Source: an uncultured Acidobacteriaceae bacterium
GTDB taxonomy: Bacteria > Acidobacteriota > Terriglobia > Bryobacterales > Bryobacteraceae
Reading direction: 5' to 3'
Length of the DNA: 64,000 bases
Assembly: GCA_963842195.1 (NCBI GenBank)
Contig: CAWJFN010000006.1
Span: 6,320 to 70,319, forward strand
Shown here piece by piece: positions 5,214 to 48,350 of the stretch. How positions within the stretch are numbered: the first letter of the stretch is position 1; each line of letters begins with the position of its first letter. A model generated the notes under the pieces. That model had not been told where the DNA came from. It did not search any database and worked only from the letters and a program-made list of their open reading frames with translations. A program made the position numbers and the translations under genes.

Positions 5214-5506
5214 TAATGGTTCGTTTCGGACGGATCGGGTAACGGGAGCGGCGCACCAGGCGTACCGCCGGGAGAAGCATGCAAGCCCATCCCATGCATG
5301 GGCTTCGAGACGACCACGGTCGAAATTGCGTGCTTGAAGATTAACTGCTCCTGGTTATTGGTCTCGAGAACGACGGAGTATTTGTCGAAGCTCTTAATAC
5401 GCCCCGACAGCTTGACACCGCTCATCAGATAAATAGTGAGGAATGTTTTTTCTTTTCTGGCGTTATTAAGAAACGCTTCCTGGATATTCTGCGCGAGCTT
5501 TTCCAT
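5213..5506 (-). CDS. hfq: RNA chaperone Hfq
   Basis: Sm1/Sm2 motifs ([40 protein letters not shown]...[11 protein letters not shown]). Start trimmed to MEKLAQN (ATG at 5506); the ORF-track start at 5596 adds 30 implausible residues. Confidence 0.9.
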
Positions 5507-5800
5507 TTGTTTGTCCGAGTGTGTTTCGCAGCGCTCTTCAATCCTAGCCGCAAACGGTAGCCAGGGTCCGCAGAGCCAATTGCAGACAATAGCCACGTCC
5601 GTAGCATCAAACCTCTAGCTCATACGCCGGGTACCCGGGCGAGCCAGGCACAAACCCCAGCATTTCTATACTATCTGGATCGGGTTTCGTACTCCGATGT
5701 TTCCTGGCCGTTCAGGAACCCTCCAGCAAGCCGTCGCTCGCCGCGTTACTTTATTGAAAGGCGGGCACGCAGTCGTGCACTTTGCGCTCCTCTGGCCTGG

Positions 5801-6736
5801 ATGTCCCAAACACTATCAACCGTTACCTCCGACTCCGAGCAGACGATAGGCCGGCGGGTCGCCCTGATTAGCATTTCCGCGGGAATCGTTCTAGCCATTC
5901 TGAAGATTTCTGTCGGAGTCGCGGCGCATTCCAATGCAGTGGTCTCGGATGGGCTTGAAACTGCGGGCGATGTCCTCTCGTCGACGATTGTCTATCTCGG
6001 GCTATGGCTTGCCAGCAAGCCGCCGGATGCCGAACATCCCTACGGGCACGGCCGCTATGAGACGCTGGCTGGACTTGCGGTGGGAGGCATTCTTCTGCTA
6101 ACCGGAACGGGTATCCTCTGGCACGGATTGAGCTCTCTAAAGCCGCGTTCGGACCTGCGCGGCTATGCTGTATATCCGCTATTCTTTGCCGCAGTCCTGA
6201 AAATCTTCCTTGCAGTGTTGAAATTTCGCACCGGCAATCGCATCGGCAGCAGCAGTCTGCAAACCGATGCCTGGCACGATGTCACGGACCTCTTCTCCAC
6301 CACTGTTGCATTAGTGTCCGTCGCGCTCACGCTGCACTATCCGGGACGGTTCGGCATGGCGGATCAGATGGGCGGCGTGGTCATCGGCATCATCGTTTTG
6401 TTCCTGTCATTGCAGGTTGTGAAGAACACGACGGGGTTTTTGCTCGATACCATGCCGGAACCCTCGCGCATGTCCGAAATTCGGCGCGTAGCGCTGAACG
6501 TGCCAGGTACGTTAGGCATTGAGAAATGCTTTGCCCGCCGGACGGGAATGAAGTATCACGTCGACCTGCACCTGGAGGTCGATCCCGATATGACAGTTCG
6601 CAGGTCTCACGAAGTTGCTACGGAGGTGAAAAAGCGCGTGAAAGAGAAGCTGCATTGGGTGGCCGACGTCTTGGTGCATGTAGAGCCGTCGGATCTGAGT
6701 GCTGAATCGGATTTACTCAGGCGCGGCCGGAATTGA
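5801..6736 (+). CDS. cation diffusion facilitator (CDF) family metal efflux transporter
   Basis: Six predicted TM helices, the HPYGHGRYETLA motif after TM2, and a C-terminal cytoplasmic domain (HVDLHLEVDPDMTV...H). Confidence 0.8.
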   Translation: MSQTLSTVTSDSEQTIGRRVALISISAGIVLAILKISVGVAAHSNAVVSDGLETAGDVLSSTIVYLGLWLASKPPDAEHPYGHGRYETLAGLAVGGILLLTGTGILWHGLSSLKPRSDLRGYAVYPLFFAAVLKIFLAVLKFRTGNRIGSSSLQTDAWHDVTDLFSTTVALVSVALTLHYPGRFGMADQMGGVVIGIIVLFLSLQVVKNTTGFLLDTMPEPSRMSEIRRVALNVPGTLGIEKCFARRTGMKYHVDLHLEVDPDMTVRRSHEVATEVKKRVKEKLHWVADVLVHVEPSDLSAESDLLRRGRN

Positions 6737-6762: not shown

Positions 6763-8487
6763 ATGGAAAACAAAGAGATCGCCCGGCTGTTACAGGAAAC
6801 CGCCGATCTGATGGAGGTCGCCGGCGAGGACGGATTTCGGATTCGAAGTTATCGCAACGCCGCAGCCGTCATCGTCAGTCATCCGGAGAGAATCGCCGAC
6901 GTTATCTGCAATCCGGAACGCAAGGTTACCGACATCGCCGGGATCGGAAAGGGTTTGGCAGCGGTGCTGACCGAAATTTGCCAGCGAGGTTCGTTCGATC
7001 GTCGCGATCAGATGCTCGCCCGCTATCCGGCGTCGGCTCTCGAACTGCTCAAAATTCAGGGTCTGGGACCGAAGAGCATCGCTCTTTTGTACGAGCATCA
7101 CGGGGCTAAGTCGGTCGATGATCTGGAACGTATCTGCCGTGAACAGAAGTTGCGCGATCTCCCGCGTATGGGAGTCAAGCTGGAAGAGAAAGTCCTGCGC
7201 TCAATCGAAGCGTATCGGCGCAGTGCGGGACGATTTCTCCTCACCTTCGGCAGGCGTACGGCGGCTGAGTTGATCGGCGAATTCTCGAAGCTCAGCGGCG
7301 TCGAGGAAATCGAGGCCGCAGGGAGCCTGCGGCGCGGCCGCGAGACCATAGGCGACCTAGACATTTTGGTGACGGGACCAGGCTCAGCGCAGGCGTTGAC
7401 GCACATTGTGAACCATCCGAAGACTCAGGAGGTTTTGGGACAGGGTTCGAACAAGGCTAGCGTGAGTTTTGGGCTCGAGCGTCTGCAGGTAGACGTACGC
7501 GCAGTCGGCGCTGACAGTCTGGGCGCCGCGATGCAGTACTTCACCGGAAGCAAGGAGCATAACGTTTTTCTGCGCACGGCGGCTCTGAAACGCGGCCTAA
7601 CATTGAATGAATACGGGCTGTTCACGCTGGAAGACAACGTGCGCGTGGCTGGGCGCGAAGAGCGGGAAATCTACGAACGCTTGGGATACGCCTGGATCCC
7701 GCCCGAACTGCGCGAGAACTCGGGCGAGTTCGAAGCGGCAGAAACAGGGACCTTACCGCGCCTCATAGAAGCTTCGGACATTCGCGGCGACCTGCATATG
7801 CATACGGTTGCGACGGACGGAAGGGCAACCCTGCAAGAGATGGCCGAGGCGGCAGCGGCTCTCGGCTATGAGTACATCGCCATCACCGATCATTCCAAAG
7901 CGCTCGCCATGGCGAACGGCCTGAACGAGGAGCGGGTGGTCGAATTCGCGCGGCAGGTGCGACAACTGAATCGCGATGGCCTGCCGCTTCGAGTCTTTTC
8001 TGGACTCGAATGTGACATCATGCGCGACGGCACTTTGGACATCGCCGAGGACGCGCTCGCTGAATTGGACATTGTCATTGGCAGTGTGCATAGCTATTTC
8101 AATCTAGAGTCGGAGGAGATGACGGATCGATTTCTGCGCGCGCTCGAGTCGCCCTCGCTGCGGATTCTGGGGCACGCGACCGGACGGATGTTGCTGCAAA
8201 GAGAGTCTTATCCCTTCGACTTCGAGCAGGTTGCCGCGGCAGCGGCGGCACGCGGGGTTCGTTTTGAAATCAATGCCAGTCCGGAGCGGCTCGATTTACC
8301 CCCTCACCTCGCTCGGGTGGCGAAGCGTAAAGGTTGCACGTTTACCATCTCGACCGACGCCCATCGCCCGCAGCACCTGCATAACATGAGTTATGGAGTC
8401 ACCGCGGCGCGACGGGCGTGGCTGGAGGCCGCCGATATCTGGAACACTCTGCCTTTGGCAGAATTTGAGGCGGCGATACGGCGCTGA
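6763..8487 (+). CDS. polX: family X DNA polymerase with C-terminal PHP phosphoesterase domain (PolX)
   Basis: HhH/8-kDa-like N-terminus, a Pol-beta nucleotidyltransferase core (GSLRRGRETIGDLDILV) and PHP motifs (GDLHMHT..., ITDHS, SVHS, STDAH). Confidence 0.85.
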   Translation: MENKEIARLLQETADLMEVAGEDGFRIRSYRNAAAVIVSHPERIADVICNPERKVTDIAGIGKGLAAVLTEICQRGSFDRRDQMLARYPASALELLKIQGLGPKSIALLYEHHGAKSVDDLERICREQKLRDLPRMGVKLEEKVLRSIEAYRRSAGRFLLTFGRRTAAELIGEFSKLSGVEEIEAAGSLRRGRETIGDLDILVTGPGSAQALTHIVNHPKTQEVLGQGSNKASVSFGLERLQVDVRAVGADSLGAAMQYFTGSKEHNVFLRTAALKRGLTLNEYGLFTLEDNVRVAGREEREIYERLGYAWIPPELRENSGEFEAAETGTLPRLIEASDIRGDLHMHTVATDGRATLQEMAEAAAALGYEYIAITDHSKALAMANGLNEERVVEFARQVRQLNRDGLPLRVFSGLECDIMRDGTLDIAEDALAELDIVIGSVHSYFNLESEEMTDRFLRALESPSLRILGHATGRMLLQRESYPFDFEQVAAAAAARGVRFEINASPERLDLPPHLARVAKRKGCTFTISTDAHRPQHLHNMSYGVTAARRAWLEAADIWNTLPLAEFEAAIRR

Positions 8488-44368: not shown

Positions 44369-45135
44369 TTGTGCGTAGAAGCGCAGCTGAGCTCGAAAAG
44401 CTGAGACGCAGCGGGTTGCTGGTCTATGAGATCTTGCAAACCCTGAAGGACATGGTCCGCGAGGGCGTGACCACTCAGGAACTCGAAGCCACTGCCGAGA
44501 AGATGATCCGGGATGCCGGCGCGAAGCCGGCGTTCAAGGGTTATTACACGCAGGCATCGGGTACGAAGTATCCGTTTGTGCTGTGTACCTCAGTGAACGA
44601 GGAGGTTGTGCACGGGATGCCGTCGGTAAGGCGCAAGTTGAGGGCAGGCGATATCGTTTCCATCGACACTGGTGTCCTGCTCGACGGCTACTACGGCGAT
44701 TCGGCTGTCACCGTGGCGGTTGGCGAAGTGAACGATTCGGTGAAGCGGCTGCTGAAGATCACGGAAGAGAGCCTGGAACTGGCAATCGATCGGGTTCGGG
44801 CCGGCAATCGGCTTTTCGATATCTGCGGAACGGTTGAAAAGCACGTGGTTTCGAACGGATTCTCGATTGTCCGTGATTTTGTTGGGCACGGAATCGGCAC
44901 CTCGCTCCACGAAGAGCCGCAAATTCCGAATTATGTGGACCGGCGGGGCGAAAATCCGCGTCTGAAGCCGGGAATGGTTCTGGCGATTGAACCGATGGTG
45001 AATGCCGGGAAGCCGGACACCAAAGTTCTGTCGGATAAATGGACTGCGGTGGCAAAGGACGGCTCCTATTCGGCCCATTTCGAGCACATGGTCGCCGTGA
45101 CGGAGAATGGCCCATGGGTGTTGTCACGGCCATGA
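44365..45135 (+). CDS. map: type I methionine aminopeptidase
   Basis: VHGMPS, DIVSIDTG, GHGIG, LAIEPM and FEHMV motifs. Start set at the GTG overlapping the adk stop (GTGA) instead of the longer ORF-track start at 44302. Confidence 0.93.
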   Translation: MIVRRSAAELEKLRRSGLLVYEILQTLKDMVREGVTTQELEATAEKMIRDAGAKPAFKGYYTQASGTKYPFVLCTSVNEEVVHGMPSVRRKLRAGDIVSIDTGVLLDGYYGDSAVTVAVGEVNDSVKRLLKITEESLELAIDRVRAGNRLFDICGTVEKHVVSNGFSIVRDFVGHGIGTSLHEEPQIPNYVDRRGENPRLKPGMVLAIEPMVNAGKPDTKVLSDKWTAVAKDGSYSAHFEHMVAVTENGPWVLSRP

Positions 45136-45371
45136 CGGCAGCCGCGGAAGCGAGTGAACGGACCAGCGAAGCCATTGTGGTCGAGCTGCTGCCGAGCGCG
45201 CTCGTTCGTGTCAGACTGGAAGGTGAGCACGAGTTGATTGCTCATCTCCCCAGCAGCCAGCGCGCGAATTTTGTGCGCTTACGGGTCGGCGATCGGGTGC
45301 GCGTGGCGCTTTCGGTTCAGGATCGGACTCGAGGACGAGTGTTGGAAGTATTGACGAAGGGATTACCGTGA
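45132..45371 (+). CDS. infA: translation initiation factor IF-1 (unusually divergent S1-fold protein at the infA position)
   Basis: ATG overlaps the map stop (ATGA). AIVVELLPSALVRVRLEGEHELIAHLPSSQRANFVRLRVGDRVRVALSVQDRTRGRVLEV aligns with the IF-1 OB fold and sits at the canonical position between map and rpmJ. Confidence 0.75.
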   Translation: MTAAAEASERTSEAIVVELLPSALVRVRLEGEHELIAHLPSSQRANFVRLRVGDRVRVALSVQDRTRGRVLEVLTKGLP

Positions 45372-45412
45372 TGGCTGCTGCGAAACTGGGCGGCCTTGGG
45401 CAAGAGTGATTT

Positions 45413-45526
45413 ATGAAGGTAAGGGCATCCGTAAAGAAGCTTTGTGACAAGTGCAAGGTGATTCATCGCCACGGCGTGGTGCGGGTCATCTGCACCAACC
45501 CCAAGCATAAGCAGCGGCAAGGATAG
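45413..45526 (+). CDS. rpmJ: 50S ribosomal protein L36 (zinc-binding form)
   Basis: Not in the ORF track (37 aa). Hand translation gives [37 protein letters not shown]. Confidence 0.95.
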
Positions 45527-45533
45527 GAGTTTT

Positions 45534-45920
45534 ATGGCGCGTATTGCAGGTGTTGATTTACCAGCTAGAAAGCGGGCAGCCATCGGGCTGACCTACATCT
45601 ACGGCATCGGTCGGACCCGTGCCTTGTCTCTACTGCACCGGGCGCAGGTAGACCCGGAAAAGAAGGTCAGCGATCTTTCCGAAGAGGAAGTGAACCATCT
45701 CCGCAACCTGATCGAGGGCGAGGGTGCCATCGAAGGAGACTTGCGCAAGGAAGTCTCAATGAACGTTAAGCGCCTGATGGAGATGGGTTCGTATCGCGGA
45801 CTGCGGCATCGCCGCGGTTTGCCGACACGGGGCCAGCGTACCCACACCAATGCACGTACCCGCAAAGGACCGCGTAAGGGGACCGTCGCCAACAAGAAGA
45901 AGGCGACCGGAAAGACATAA
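45534..45920 (+). CDS. rpsM: 30S ribosomal protein S13
   Basis: [10 protein letters not shown]...LTYIYGIG...[28 protein letters not shown]. Confidence 0.97.
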
Positions 45921-45937
45921 GCGAGAAGGCATTCAGA

Positions 45938-46345
45938 ATGGCGAAGGCACCGGCAAAGACAGCTAAGAAAAAATCCTTCAAGAAGAAGGAGAAAAAGAAC
46001 GTTCCTTACGGGACGGTACACATCCAGGCATCGTTCAATAACACGATCGTCACGTTTACGGATCCGCTGGGCAATGTTCTCGCATGGTCGAGTTCAGGCT
46101 CGCTAGGCTTCCGCGGTTCGCGAAAAGGTACGCCCTTCGCCGCGCAGCAGGCGTCGTTGACTGCGGCTAACAAGGCGAAAGATTCCGGTGTGCGCACAGT
46201 TGAGGTTCGGGTTGCAGGACCGGGTTCGGGCCGCGAATCGGCCGTCCGTGCTCTCGCGACCGCAGGCATCGAAGTCCGGTCGATTAAGGACGTCACCCCG
46301 ATCCCGCACAATGGCTGCCGGCCGCCGAAAAAACGCCGCGTATAG
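45938..46345 (+). CDS. rpsK: 30S ribosomal protein S11
   Basis: [46 protein letters not shown]...[12 protein letters not shown]. Confidence 0.97.
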
Positions 46346-46384
46346 ATTTATTTGCCGCTTGCTGGCGCGTTCGGGTTCCAAACA

Positions 46385-46592
46385 GAGCCGCGACCGCCAG
46401 GGAGCGGTTTAGTTGATTCCGAGCCGGAAGCGTAAGCGACCGGTTAATCAAATCTGAGCCGGAAGCGTAAGCGACCGGTTAATTAAATCCGAGCCGCAAC
46501 CGTGAGGGAGCGGTTTTCCAAAGCGGGACGAACGCCTTGCCAGGCCGTAAACCGCACCTGATAATCCGAGCCGGGAGCGTCAGCGACCGGTC
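46385..46592 (+). repeat. array of five 25-nt hairpin repeats (GAGCCGGAAGCGTAAGCGACCGGTT family) in the rpsK-rpsD spacer
   Basis: Copies at 46385-46409, 46421-46445, 46456-46480, 46491-46515 (35-36 nt period) and 46568-46592. The stem and inner pair covary between copies, and the loops are G-N-N-A tetraloops. Confidence 0.8.
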
Positions 46593-46614
46593 GCAATGTT
46601 GGAGGTCATCGAAA

Positions 46615-47247
46615 TTGGCACGTTATAGTGGCCCGGTCTGCCGGCTTTGCCGGCGCGAAGGCATGAAGCTGTTCCTCAAAGGGGAGCGCTGCCACAGTGA
46701 GAAGTGCGCTATTGAAAAGCGCAACTTTGCTCCTGGCCAGCACGGAAAAGACAAGAAGGCCAAGATAGTCGGATACGGCCTGCAGCTGCGCGAAAAACAA
46801 AAGGCGCGACGTTACTATCGCGTTCTGGAAGGACAATTCCGGAACCTTTACGAAAAGGCCGTGAATCAAAAAGGTATTACGGGCGAGTTGATGCTCGCCA
46901 TGTTGGAGAAACGGCTGGATAATGTCGTTTACCGCATGGGGATCGCCACCAGCCGCGCACAGGCTCGCCAAGTGGTCCGCCACGGCCATATCAGGGTCAA
47001 CGGACACAAGGTGAACATTCCTTCTTACATGGTGAAGACCGGCGACAATGTAGAAGTTCGCGAAAAAAGCCGGAACAATCCGTTCATTTTGTCTGCTCGC
47101 GACGCTACGGCCCATACCCCCAGCCCCTCATGGCTGGAAGTGGACCGCGAGGCGCTGCGTGCCCGTGTTTTGCAGCAACCCAAGCGCGAAGAGTTGGTGC
47201 AGATCCAGTTGAACGAACAGCTCATCGTCGAGCTGTACTCGAAGTAA
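46615..47247 (+). CDS. rpsD: 30S ribosomal protein S4
   Basis: (M)[25 protein letters not shown]... TTG start at 46615 sits 9 nt after a GGAGG RBS. The ORF-track start at 46537 would read through hairpin repeat 5. Confidence 0.93.
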
Positions 47248-47276
47248 TTCGAAAATCGACGAGGAGGATTAAGCCA

Positions 47277-47301
47277 GAGCCGGAAGCGTCAGCGACCGGT
47301 T
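47277..47301 (+). repeat. sixth copy of the 25-nt hairpin repeat, in the rpsD-rpoA spacer
   Basis: gagccggaagcgtcagcgaccggtt, 18 nt upstream of the rpoA ATG. Confidence 0.75.
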
Positions 47302-47318
47302 CTCCATTTGGAGAAACT

Positions 47319-48350
47319 ATGTTCAAAGGATTTCAGAAACCCAAGCGTCTGGTTGCGAATACGGAAACGCTCACCGAGCGCTATGGTCAATTCACGGCGC
47401 AGCCGTTCGAGCGCGGATTTGGACCGACCATCGGCACCGGATTGCGCCGTGTACTGCTGAGCTCAATCGAGGGTGCTGCTATTACCGGCGTGCGCATCGA
47501 AGGCGTCTCGCACGAATTCAGCCCCATTCCCGGCGTTGTCGAAGACGCCACCGACATCATCCTGAACCTCAAGCAGGTGCCATTCAAGATGATGGGCGAA
47601 GGCACGCGCATCGCACGCATCAACATCGACGCGCCCGGCGAGGTGATGAGCAGCAACATCGAAACCGATGCGGACGTTGAAGTGCTCGACCGCAATCTGC
47701 ATATCGCCACCGTGGGCGAGGGCGGCAAGTTGAGCATCGAAATGCGTATCAAGACGGGCCGCGGCTATGTGTCCGCCGATCGCAACTACGATGAGGATCT
47801 GCCCCTCGGCTATATCCCCATCGACTCAGTCCATTCTCCCGTTCGGAAAGTCAACTATACGGTGGAAGCAGCCCGCCTCGGCCAGAACACCGACTACGAC
47901 AAGCTCCTCGTAGAAGTGTGGACAAATGGCGCAATTTCGCCACAGGATTCGATCGGGCAGGCTGCGAAGCTGCTCAAAGATCACATGACCATCTTCATCA
48001 ACTTCGAAGAGACACCGGAAATCTTTGAGGAACCGACCGAGCGCGCGGCAAACCAAATGAACGAGGTGCTGAATCGTTCTGTTGAAGAACTCGAGCTCAG
48101 TGTCCGTTCTTACAACTGCCTGAAGAATGCCAACATCCAGACCATCGGCGATCTGGTTCAGAAGAGCGAATCCGAAATGCTTCGGACGAAGAACTTCGGA
48201 CGTAAGTCGCTGAACGAAATCAAAGAGATCCTTTCCGGCCTCGGCCTCTCCTTCGGTATGAAGTTCGACACTCAGGGCAGGCTGGTCGGAGGCGCGCCTT
48301 CAGCCCCTGCATCTGATTACGGTCAGGACCAATACGGAGCAGAGGAGTAG
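47319..48350 (+). CDS. rpoA: DNA-directed RNA polymerase subunit alpha
   Basis: [11 protein letters not shown]...[35 protein letters not shown]...; C-terminal domain [24 protein letters not shown]. Start trimmed from the ORF-track 47130, which overlaps rpsD. Confidence 0.96.

Follow-up and report, generated by a model that had tools for sequence, protein, structure and literature searches.

Hairpin repeats in the rpsK-rpsD and rpsD-rpoA spacers of a Bryobacteraceae bacterium as probable copies of a dispersed REP-like family

A 64-kb stretch of contig CAWJFN010000006.1 from an uncultured Bryobacteraceae bacterium, hereafter called the window, carries part of the alpha operon, in which six hairpin-forming 25-nt units (copies 1 to 6) occupy the spacers on either side of rpsD, the gene for ribosomal protein S4. 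The region 45800-47500 was read directly, and both strands of the window were scanned with a degenerate pattern of the unit, which gave 6 matches against 0.24 expected by chance, all on the plus strand and none elsewhere in the 64 kb. Sequences and coordinates agree with the six units described in an earlier note on this DNA, as does the 269-nt length given there for the rpsK-rpsD spacer. Together with one decayed inverted partner, the six units are most probably copies of a dispersed palindromic repeat resembling the repetitive extragenic palindromic (REP) sequences, acquired as lineage-specific gains. The features of the locus are as follows.

45938..46345, plus strand: rpsK (S11), the upstream gene, named from Pfam labels of orthologues
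46353..46377, minus strand: decayed inverted partner of copy 1, of a second, 'Z' subtype; own-strand family consensus GAGCCGCGCGCGTNAGCAAGCGGT
46383..46409, plus strand: copy 1 with its foot CAGA; unit GAGCCGCGACCGCCAGGGAGCGGTT at 46385-46409; Solibacter/Legionella 'Y' subtype; loop GCCA
46418..46515, plus strand: copies 2-4 arranged head to tail as a 35-nt repeat, present 2.8 times with 87% matches (Tandem Repeats Finder)
46419..46445, plus strand: copy 2 with its foot CCGA; unit GAGCCGGAAGCGTAAGCGACCGGTT at 46421-46445; Planctopirus limnophilus 'W' subtype; loop GUAA
46454..46480, plus strand: copy 3 with its foot CTGA; unit GAGCCGGAAGCGTAAGCGACCGGTT at 46456-46480; W subtype
46489..46515, plus strand: copy 4 with its foot CCGA; unit GAGCCGCAACCGTGAGGGAGCGGTT at 46491-46515; Y subtype, GCAACC sub-variant; loop GUGA
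46519..46564, plus strand: candidate S4 leader between copies 4 and 5, outside the repeat family
46566..46592, plus strand: copy 5 with its foot CCGA; unit GAGCCGGGAGCGTCAGCGACCGGTC at 46568-46592; W subtype
46615..47247, plus strand: rpsD (S4), TTG start, 210 aa
47275..47301, plus strand: copy 6 with its foot CAGA; unit GAGCCGGAAGCGTCAGCGACCGGTT at 47277-47301; W subtype
47319..48350, plus strand: rpoA, ATG start, the downstream gene

The rpsK-rpsD spacer of 269 nt holds five of the copies and a GGAGG sequence at 46601-46605 that precedes the rpsD start, and the rpsD-rpoA spacer, which holds the sixth copy, is 71 nt long. Each unit adopts the hairpin that the earlier note had proposed, with a stem of positions 4-7 and 20-23, a 2x2 internal loop of purines, two further pairs (10-11 with 16-17) and a GNNA loop; the stem is often lengthened by G3.U24 and A2-U25. 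A 5' foot of the form CnGA adjoins all six copies (CAGA, CCGA, CTGA, CCGA, CCGA and CAGA in order). Copies 2 and 3 are the same 25-mer. Pairs C7:G20 and C10:G17 occur in copies 1 and 4, and G7:C20 and G10:C17 in copies 2, 3, 5 and 6. Folded as RNA, the units gave -13 to -16.7 kcal/mol in the sense direction (z-scores of -2.1 to -4.9) and -8 to -11 kcal/mol in the antisense direction (-0.2 to -1.3), a gap that was smaller when they were folded as DNA. The fold of the whole rpsK-rpsD spacer relative to shuffled sequence had a z-score of -4.4 on the plus strand and -0.9 on the minus strand. No terminator-like T-run follows the unit stems. The Rfam scan that the earlier note had suggested returned no match to the hairpins, either at the gathering score over the whole window or at E <= 10 over 45400-47400; the nearest match, RF00140 (Alpha_RBS), was sub-threshold at 18 bits and lies at the rpsM start.

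The repeat family is one already described in the literature, as Table S1 of Quentin et al. (2018, BMC Genomics 19:475, PMC6006769) indicates. That article defines a small 'class 3' of HuH-Y1 proteins, mainly from Planctomycetes, Acidobacteria and Proteobacteria, and its account of the class reports that class 3 TnpA-Y1 genes are flanked by REP-like structures bearing a 5' CnGA foot, an arrangement termed REPtron-like, with ~600 such copies in Solibacter usitatus. The units printed in Table S1 include CAGAGCCGCGACCGTTAGGGAGCG and CGGAGCCGCGACCGTAAGGGAGCG from S. usitatus, CCGAGCCGCGACCGTAAGGGAGCGGA from L. pneumophila, and CACGAGCCGGAAGCGTGAGCGACGGGT and ACGAGCCGGAAGCGTCAGCGACGGGC from P. limnophilus, all drawn as ((((..((....))..)))), that is, four base pairs, a 2x2 loop, two base pairs and a 4-nt loop. 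Of the window copies, 1 and 4 correspond to the units of S. usitatus and L. pneumophila, and 2, 3, 5 and 6 to those of P. limnophilus, for which the same table has the core GAGCCGGAAGCGTNAGCGAC. Within what the article gives for class 3 REPtron hairpins, the agreement covers the sequences, both subtypes, the fold, the CnGA foot, the phyla and, as seen in other carriers of the family, the high copy number and the intergenic scatter. The text string GAGCCGCGACCG was not found in a full-text literature search; the published units are printed in a supplement. Among the candidates of the earlier note had been a small, mobile, REP-like hairpin spread into the spacers, and it is this candidate that the match to the published family bears out.

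The same note had read the joint changes at pairs 7:20 and 10:17 as two independent compensatory swaps. Both swaps are real, but they are best taken as marks of two pre-existing subfamilies, each of which occurs in other phyla, and not as products of independent evolution in situ. The W subtype is identical in a metagenome-assembled genome (MAG) of the Gemmatales and near-identical in one of the Chthonomonadaceae; the 24-mer of copy 6 equals a copy in the Gemmatales MAG L040 (compared loci and contigs are cited by such L numbers), and the GCAACC sub-variant of copy 4 recurs in L019, L027 and L076. Over 100 different members of the family, the counts are 70 CG and 26 GC at pair 10:17 and 89 CG and 4 GC at pair 7:20; A2:U25, paired in 35%, is without family-wide support. 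The covariation for which the earlier note had proposed a larger alignment was accordingly observed in the stem pairs over these 100 variants, where it reflects the subfamilies present among the window copies.

The six units are the full set of intact copies, but a seventh, degenerate and inverted, had been overlooked at 46353-46377. Copy 1 and this inverted partner stand head to head as a doublet, which can be aligned with rcZ-spacer-Y doublets in L014, L025, L094, L111 and L205, and the two pair with each other when the spacer is folded to its minimum free energy.

Orthologous spacers were compared in 80 metagenome loci with S4 at 64-92% identity and in 10 loci with identical L36 (L201-L210); an exact look-up of the window S11 protein returned no record. 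The hairpin is missing from both the rpsK-rpsD and the rpsD-rpoA spacer in all six of the closest metagenome S4 loci (L121-L126, 88-92% identity), in which these spacers measure 66-138 nt and 14-35 nt, respectively. When 46353-46515 and ~35 nt around copy 5 are removed from the window sequence, ~70 nt are left that can be aligned with the 66-73-nt spacers of L121-L123. The limits drawn from these three loci place copy 5 inside an inserted block of ~35 nt that separates the conserved leader (ACCUGA) from the rpsD Shine-Dalgarno sequence. By comparison with L124 and L125, whose spacers have 33-35 nt, copy 6 lies inside an inserted block of ~40 nt that separates the ancestral GGAGGATTAA from the rpoA start, and removal of the ~40 nt around it leaves the ancestral GGAGGATTAA...AAACT. 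Since ancestral-like spacers remain once the repeat blocks are removed, the copies are insertions, and their presence or absence across the orthologous spacers of close relatives identifies them as lineage-specific gains. Judged from these alignments, the copies landed recently in the two alpha-operon spacers and enlarged the first from ~70 to 269 nt and the second from ~30 to 71 nt.

Other relatives carry copies of their own in the same and neighbouring operons. One antisense copy, abutting the leader, lies in the S11-S4 spacer of L205 (90% S4 identity), which also holds an rcZ-Y doublet in the S14-S8 spacer and an rcY-Z doublet in the L30-L15 spacer. The rpsK-rpsD spacer holds one copy each in L147 and L148, one second-subtype copy in L149 and two tandem diverged copies in L128; across 89 S4 loci, only scattered, differing or antisense copies were found in the spacer. 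In L023, a Terriglobia MAG syntenic with the window over 29.5-37.4 kb (81-98% protein identity), the tuf-rpsJ spacer contains a doublet at the place of an unrelated hairpin in the window, and copy 1 is identical over its 25 nt to the copy in that spacer. The synteny with L023 also assigns the window to the class Terriglobia of the Acidobacteriota.

These comparisons bear directly on the proposal of the earlier note that the hairpins belong to the alpha-operon transcript as an RNA element, serving in autoregulation by S4 or another ribosomal protein or as a processing site. A dedicated regulator of this kind, whether bound by a ribosomal protein or acting as an autoregulatory leader, would agree with the sense orientation of all six copies, with stable RNA hairpins that combine GNNA loops and tandem purine mismatches, with their position adjoining the rpsD start and with a spacer whose plus strand folds far better than shuffled sequence. 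It is nevertheless very improbable, given that the hairpins are missing from both spacers of the closest relatives, that the copy in L205 is antisense, that several phyla have the same 24-mers, on either strand, at arbitrary places between genes, and that a separate conserved and covarying element holds the leader position. The hairpins are thus neither conserved in sense orientation at the orthologous site nor restricted to the regulated operon. Copies on both strands in arbitrary intergenic regions and absence from orthologous spacers had been named in the earlier note as outcomes that would count against a functional RNA; both were found, with the family present in at least 102 genomes.

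With the repeats set aside, a strongly covarying element upstream of rpsD becomes visible at 46519-46564. The motif AAGCrGGAnGAArG-[hairpin]-CCGUAAACyGCACCUGA stands just before the rpsD Shine-Dalgarno sequence in nearly all relatives (L121-L210). It consists of a helix P1 (GCGG/CCGC in the window, GCrG/CyGC family-wide), invariant internal loops GAnGAA and GUAAA, and a variable P2 hairpin. In an alignment of 52 distinct sequences, 96.9% of cells were paired and 84 double-sided changes were counted compared to 22 in shuffles, and pairing fell to 23-47% in slid controls. P1 alternates between G-C, A-U, C-G and U-A pairs, and P2 varies freely. A covariance model of the element run over 824 kb matched only upstream of rpsD (E <= 2.5e-10), with all other matches at E > 0.1; no Rfam family matched it at E <= 10 over 45400-47400. 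The hairpins share their site upstream of rpsD with known S4 leaders, namely the E. coli alpha-operon pseudoknot (RF00140), the B. subtilis rpsD leader and those compiled by Eckert and Weinberg (2020, PMC7247131). Unlike these leaders, the hairpins are not conserved at the site, and leader-like behaviour belongs to 46519-46564. The leaders published in the latter work are from Bacteroidia, Flavobacteria, Clostridia and Fusobacteriales, which are other phyla, and the present element is not among them. On comparative sequence grounds, 46519-46564, and not the repeats, is a candidate for a new S4 leader class of Acidobacteriota.

The repeat family itself was surveyed with an exact pattern scan of one genome per species, the counts of which are lower bounds. 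At least 143 copies were found in at least 120 stretches from at least 102 assemblies (MAGs). Among the matches listed, 71 loci are from Acidobacteriota, mostly Bryobacterales, Solibacteraceae or Terriglobia, 45 from Planctomycetota, 2 from Anaerolineae and 1 each from Chthonomonadaceae and Binataceae; this predominance of Acidobacteriota and Planctomycetota fits the host range of class 3. The unit was also present in 93 IMG/VR contigs classed as viral (L212-L304), and a plasmid collection queried with the doublet gave no match. Among the matches of the species scan, the commonest form is GAGCCGCGACCG-YNA-GGGAGCGGT. Upstream of the unit in 193 copies, C is found at -2 in 78% and A or T at -3 in 87% and at -4 in 79%; these positions were outside the search pattern, so the CnGA foot was reproduced independently.

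Using a simple gene call based on GC content at third codon positions, in which ~81% of the DNA was coding, 150 of 191 copies were placed between genes and most others at the edges of open reading frames (ORFs). The strand bias relative to transcription that the earlier note had asked about was absent: copies in co-directional spacers were sense in 40 cases and antisense in 33, and a further 40 lay between convergent and 22 between divergent genes. There is no family bias in copy strand relative to transcription. The genes beside copies belong to unrelated families (peptidases, response regulators, TonB-dependent receptors, ABC ATPases), and those bracketed by two copies are ordinary genes, plus an IS5-like DDE transposase in L085. 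Further clusters occurred at ~1 per 36 kb of flanking DNA, a crude figure from which roughly a hundred or more would be expected in each carrier genome. Layouts comprise singletons, tail-to-tail homodimers, head-to-head heterodimers with the second subtype GAGCCGCGCGCGTNAGCAAGCGGT, tandem 5' half-sites (L007, L020, L021, L106, L113) and direct arrays. Direct arrays have five copies at a 67-69-nt period in L270 and L219 and a 34-nt period in L272. In the five-copy arrays (L270 13141-13490; L219 1365-1659), which are head-to-tail, the 67-69-nt unit includes extra 5' half-sites.

The IS5-like insertion sequence (IS) element in L085 spans 5466-6525, carries a DDE_Tnp_1 transposase and inverted ends GAGCAAATTGCA, and interrupts a hairpin copy within its loop, the TTAG of which is duplicated on either side. 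The loops of these hairpins can accordingly serve as IS targets.

A service of the units to the host at the RNA level, which would be compatible with their being dispersed REP-like copies, was weighed separately. Mobile or duplicated units may now act as barriers to 3'-5' exonucleases or as processing sites, so that mRNA levels of rpsM-rpsK, rpsD and rpoA differ, or they may alter the access of S4 to the leader. Intercistronic REPs of E. coli are the analogue, and at malE-malF the stabilisation of upstream mRNA by a REP is established. The stability of the hairpins would suit such a role, as would the uniform sense orientation of the six window copies and the way in which five copies bracket the conserved leader, one of them between leader and Shine-Dalgarno sequence; other hairpins also often stand at the same two positions in relatives, e.g. 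L124-L126, L139 and L158. Set against this are the lack of positional conservation, the near-equal sense and antisense counts of the family and the absence of a terminator-like T-run, and no public sequencing run held more than 8% of the sequence words. An RNA-level service of this general kind is therefore regarded as rather unlikely. A more specific form, in which the array has been co-opted to retune S4 autoregulation and to uncouple the mRNA stabilities of rpsM-rpsK, rpsD and rpoA in this lineage, was considered because the array brackets the rpsD leader at 46519-46564 and places a stable hairpin between leader and Shine-Dalgarno sequence. It is improbable; if true, a Y1-type repeat would have rewired a core ribosomal operon.

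The regular spacing of copies 2-4 raises the question of how the array grew. Replication slippage or unequal recombination from one or two founders, with no transposition for each copy, has a chance only somewhat short of even. It would account for a 35-nt repeat that includes the linker and for the identity of copies 2 and 3; the 10-nt linkers in this array are A/T-rich and alike among themselves. Tandem arrays of unit plus flank also occur elsewhere (e.g. 5.2 repeats of a 67-nt unit in L270), as do the tandem 5' half-sites noted above. The subtypes, on the other hand, are interleaved as Y, W, W, Y, then W and W, and copies 5 and 6 lie in separate places with unrelated flanks, so several independent arrivals are still needed.

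Evenly spaced direct repeats might also recall a miniature array of clustered regularly interspaced short palindromic repeats (CRISPR), and the unit, with its basal helix of A-U, G.U, C-G, C-G and G-C pairs, an AGC triad and a GNRA-like loop, has some likeness to domain V of group II introns. These identities, and that of intrinsic terminators, are hardly credible for the units. A CRISPR array, which the earlier note had rightly set aside, was rejected on the ~10-nt linkers, which resemble one another, compared to unique spacers of about 25-50 nt. Domain V was rejected on a 25-nt unit with a symmetric 2x2 loop, as against 34 nt with a 2-nt bulge, and the Intron_gpII family on the result that Rfam gave nothing at E <= 10. 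Intrinsic terminators were rejected for want of a T-run after the stems.

The assignment to dispersed REP-like repeats was further examined by comparison with related systems. Canonical REPs and bacterial interspersed mosaic elements (BIMEs) of Enterobacteria and Pseudomonas, mobilised by the class 2 TnpA-REP enzymes (RAYT), and the GTAG REPs (Di Nocera et al. 2013, PMC3733652) likewise consist of a short imperfect palindrome with an unpaired 5' tag. They too are extragenic, occur as singletons, as head-to-head or tail-to-tail dimers that are often heterodimers of two subtypes, and as clusters, and are targets of IS elements, as is the copy in L085. The tag differs, being CnGA(G) here and GT[AG]G or CGTC in canonical REPs, as do the stem, which has only 4+2 base pairs with a 2x2 purine loop, and the enzyme class. 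The unit is moreover common to several phyla, whereas classical REPs are largely lineage-specific; such near-identity of a 24-mer across phyla is not usual among REPs and suggests a partner protein that imposes tight constraint. By analogy, the units would be recognised in the same way as the subterminal hairpins of IS200/IS605 elements (class 1 Y1, TnpA-IS200), as a hairpin on one strand of single-stranded DNA with an adjacent tetranucleotide. In contrast to IS200/IS605, there is no IS body between the copies, the copies far exceed any transposase gene, and no pair of left and right ends is evident. With respect to class 3 REPtrons, a head-to-tail array in a ribosomal-protein operon and Y/Z heterodimers are seen here and are not described in that article's account of the class (PMC6006769), and the flanked class 3 gene belongs to the published systems and was not seen here.

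IS608 TnpA and E. coli RayT bind their hairpin on one strand of DNA in its single-stranded state and read the neighbouring tetranucleotide. By analogy with IS200/IS605 TnpA and RayT, a class 3 Y1 endonuclease would recognise the hairpin and foot on single-stranded DNA and so spread copies. The recognised strand would be that bearing the G.T and G.A mismatches and the foot, and the enzyme would read the adjacent tetranucleotide and cut and rejoin there. Local slippage or unequal recombination may then have produced the 35-nt array. The plus strand has a positive GC skew here, which gives a weak hint that the active strand could be the lagging-strand template; the region is also highly transcribed. 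When transcribed, the units are predicted to form stable RNA hairpins capped by GNNA loops, and any effect on mRNA decay or on translation of S4 or RpoA would be a by-product and not a conserved function.

Several observations weigh against this interpretation. Searches with regular expressions for the class 3 HuH-Y1 signature (NHVH ... YV[VI]xEQ) and with phmmer using E. coli RayT found no class 3 gene among the six-frame ORFs of the window or of ~2.2 Mb of loci; the link of the repeats to that enzyme, whose activity is putative, therefore derives from the published description of class 3 (PMC6006769). The window holds a single cluster in 64 kb, with further copies in the close relatives L205 and L023. 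All six intact copies are sense, as are those just after rpsK in L128, L147, L148 and L149, so that a local selective filter on orientation is possible.

As it stands, the finding makes it apt to mask the units as a known repeat and not to annotate them as a riboswitch-like leader. There is no Rfam model for the family, which invites its repeated flagging as a 'novel structured RNA'. The distribution reported here is far wider than the 24 genomes named in the class 3 description (PMC6006769), with at least 102 MAGs, the additional Anaerolineae, Chthonomonadaceae and Binataceae, and the 93 IMG/VR contigs.

One Bryobacteraceae MAG that carries the family also has a Y1 system of another kind. On the minus strand of L004, 7087-7749 contains a frameshifted RAYT-like Y1 gene with HVH and YIEANP motifs (E of 1e-5 to E. 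coli RayT). The long inverted repeats that flank it, at 7156-7200 and 7787-7831, have no relation to the hairpin family. This class-2-like RAYT was rejected as a partner of the hairpins, being flanked by other repeats.

Further observations concern the immediate surroundings of the copies. Long imperfect palindromes unrelated to the hairpin family stand just after rpsK in L139, L150, L158, L161, L195, L196 and L200, built from short tandem repeats such as GGTGCTAGGTGCTGG...CCAGCACCCAGAACC; the site just after rpsK seems to tolerate or attract hairpin-forming DNA generally. A sigma-70-like match, TTGCCA-17-GATAAT (10/12), lies at 46537-46565 on the plus strand as a consensus match only, and its -10 hexamer arises at the junction of the conserved leader and the copy 5 block. 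The copy 6 block ends in UCUCCAUUUGGAGA, a small hairpin (47302-47318, plus strand) that holds GGAG, now the likely rpoA Shine-Dalgarno sequence; the ancestral GGAGGA lies ~40 nt further upstream. Elsewhere in the cluster, infA was not called between map and rpmJ in several relatives, and the window has an IF-1-like ORF at that place (45039-45371, plus strand) that looks diverged and has an ambiguous start.

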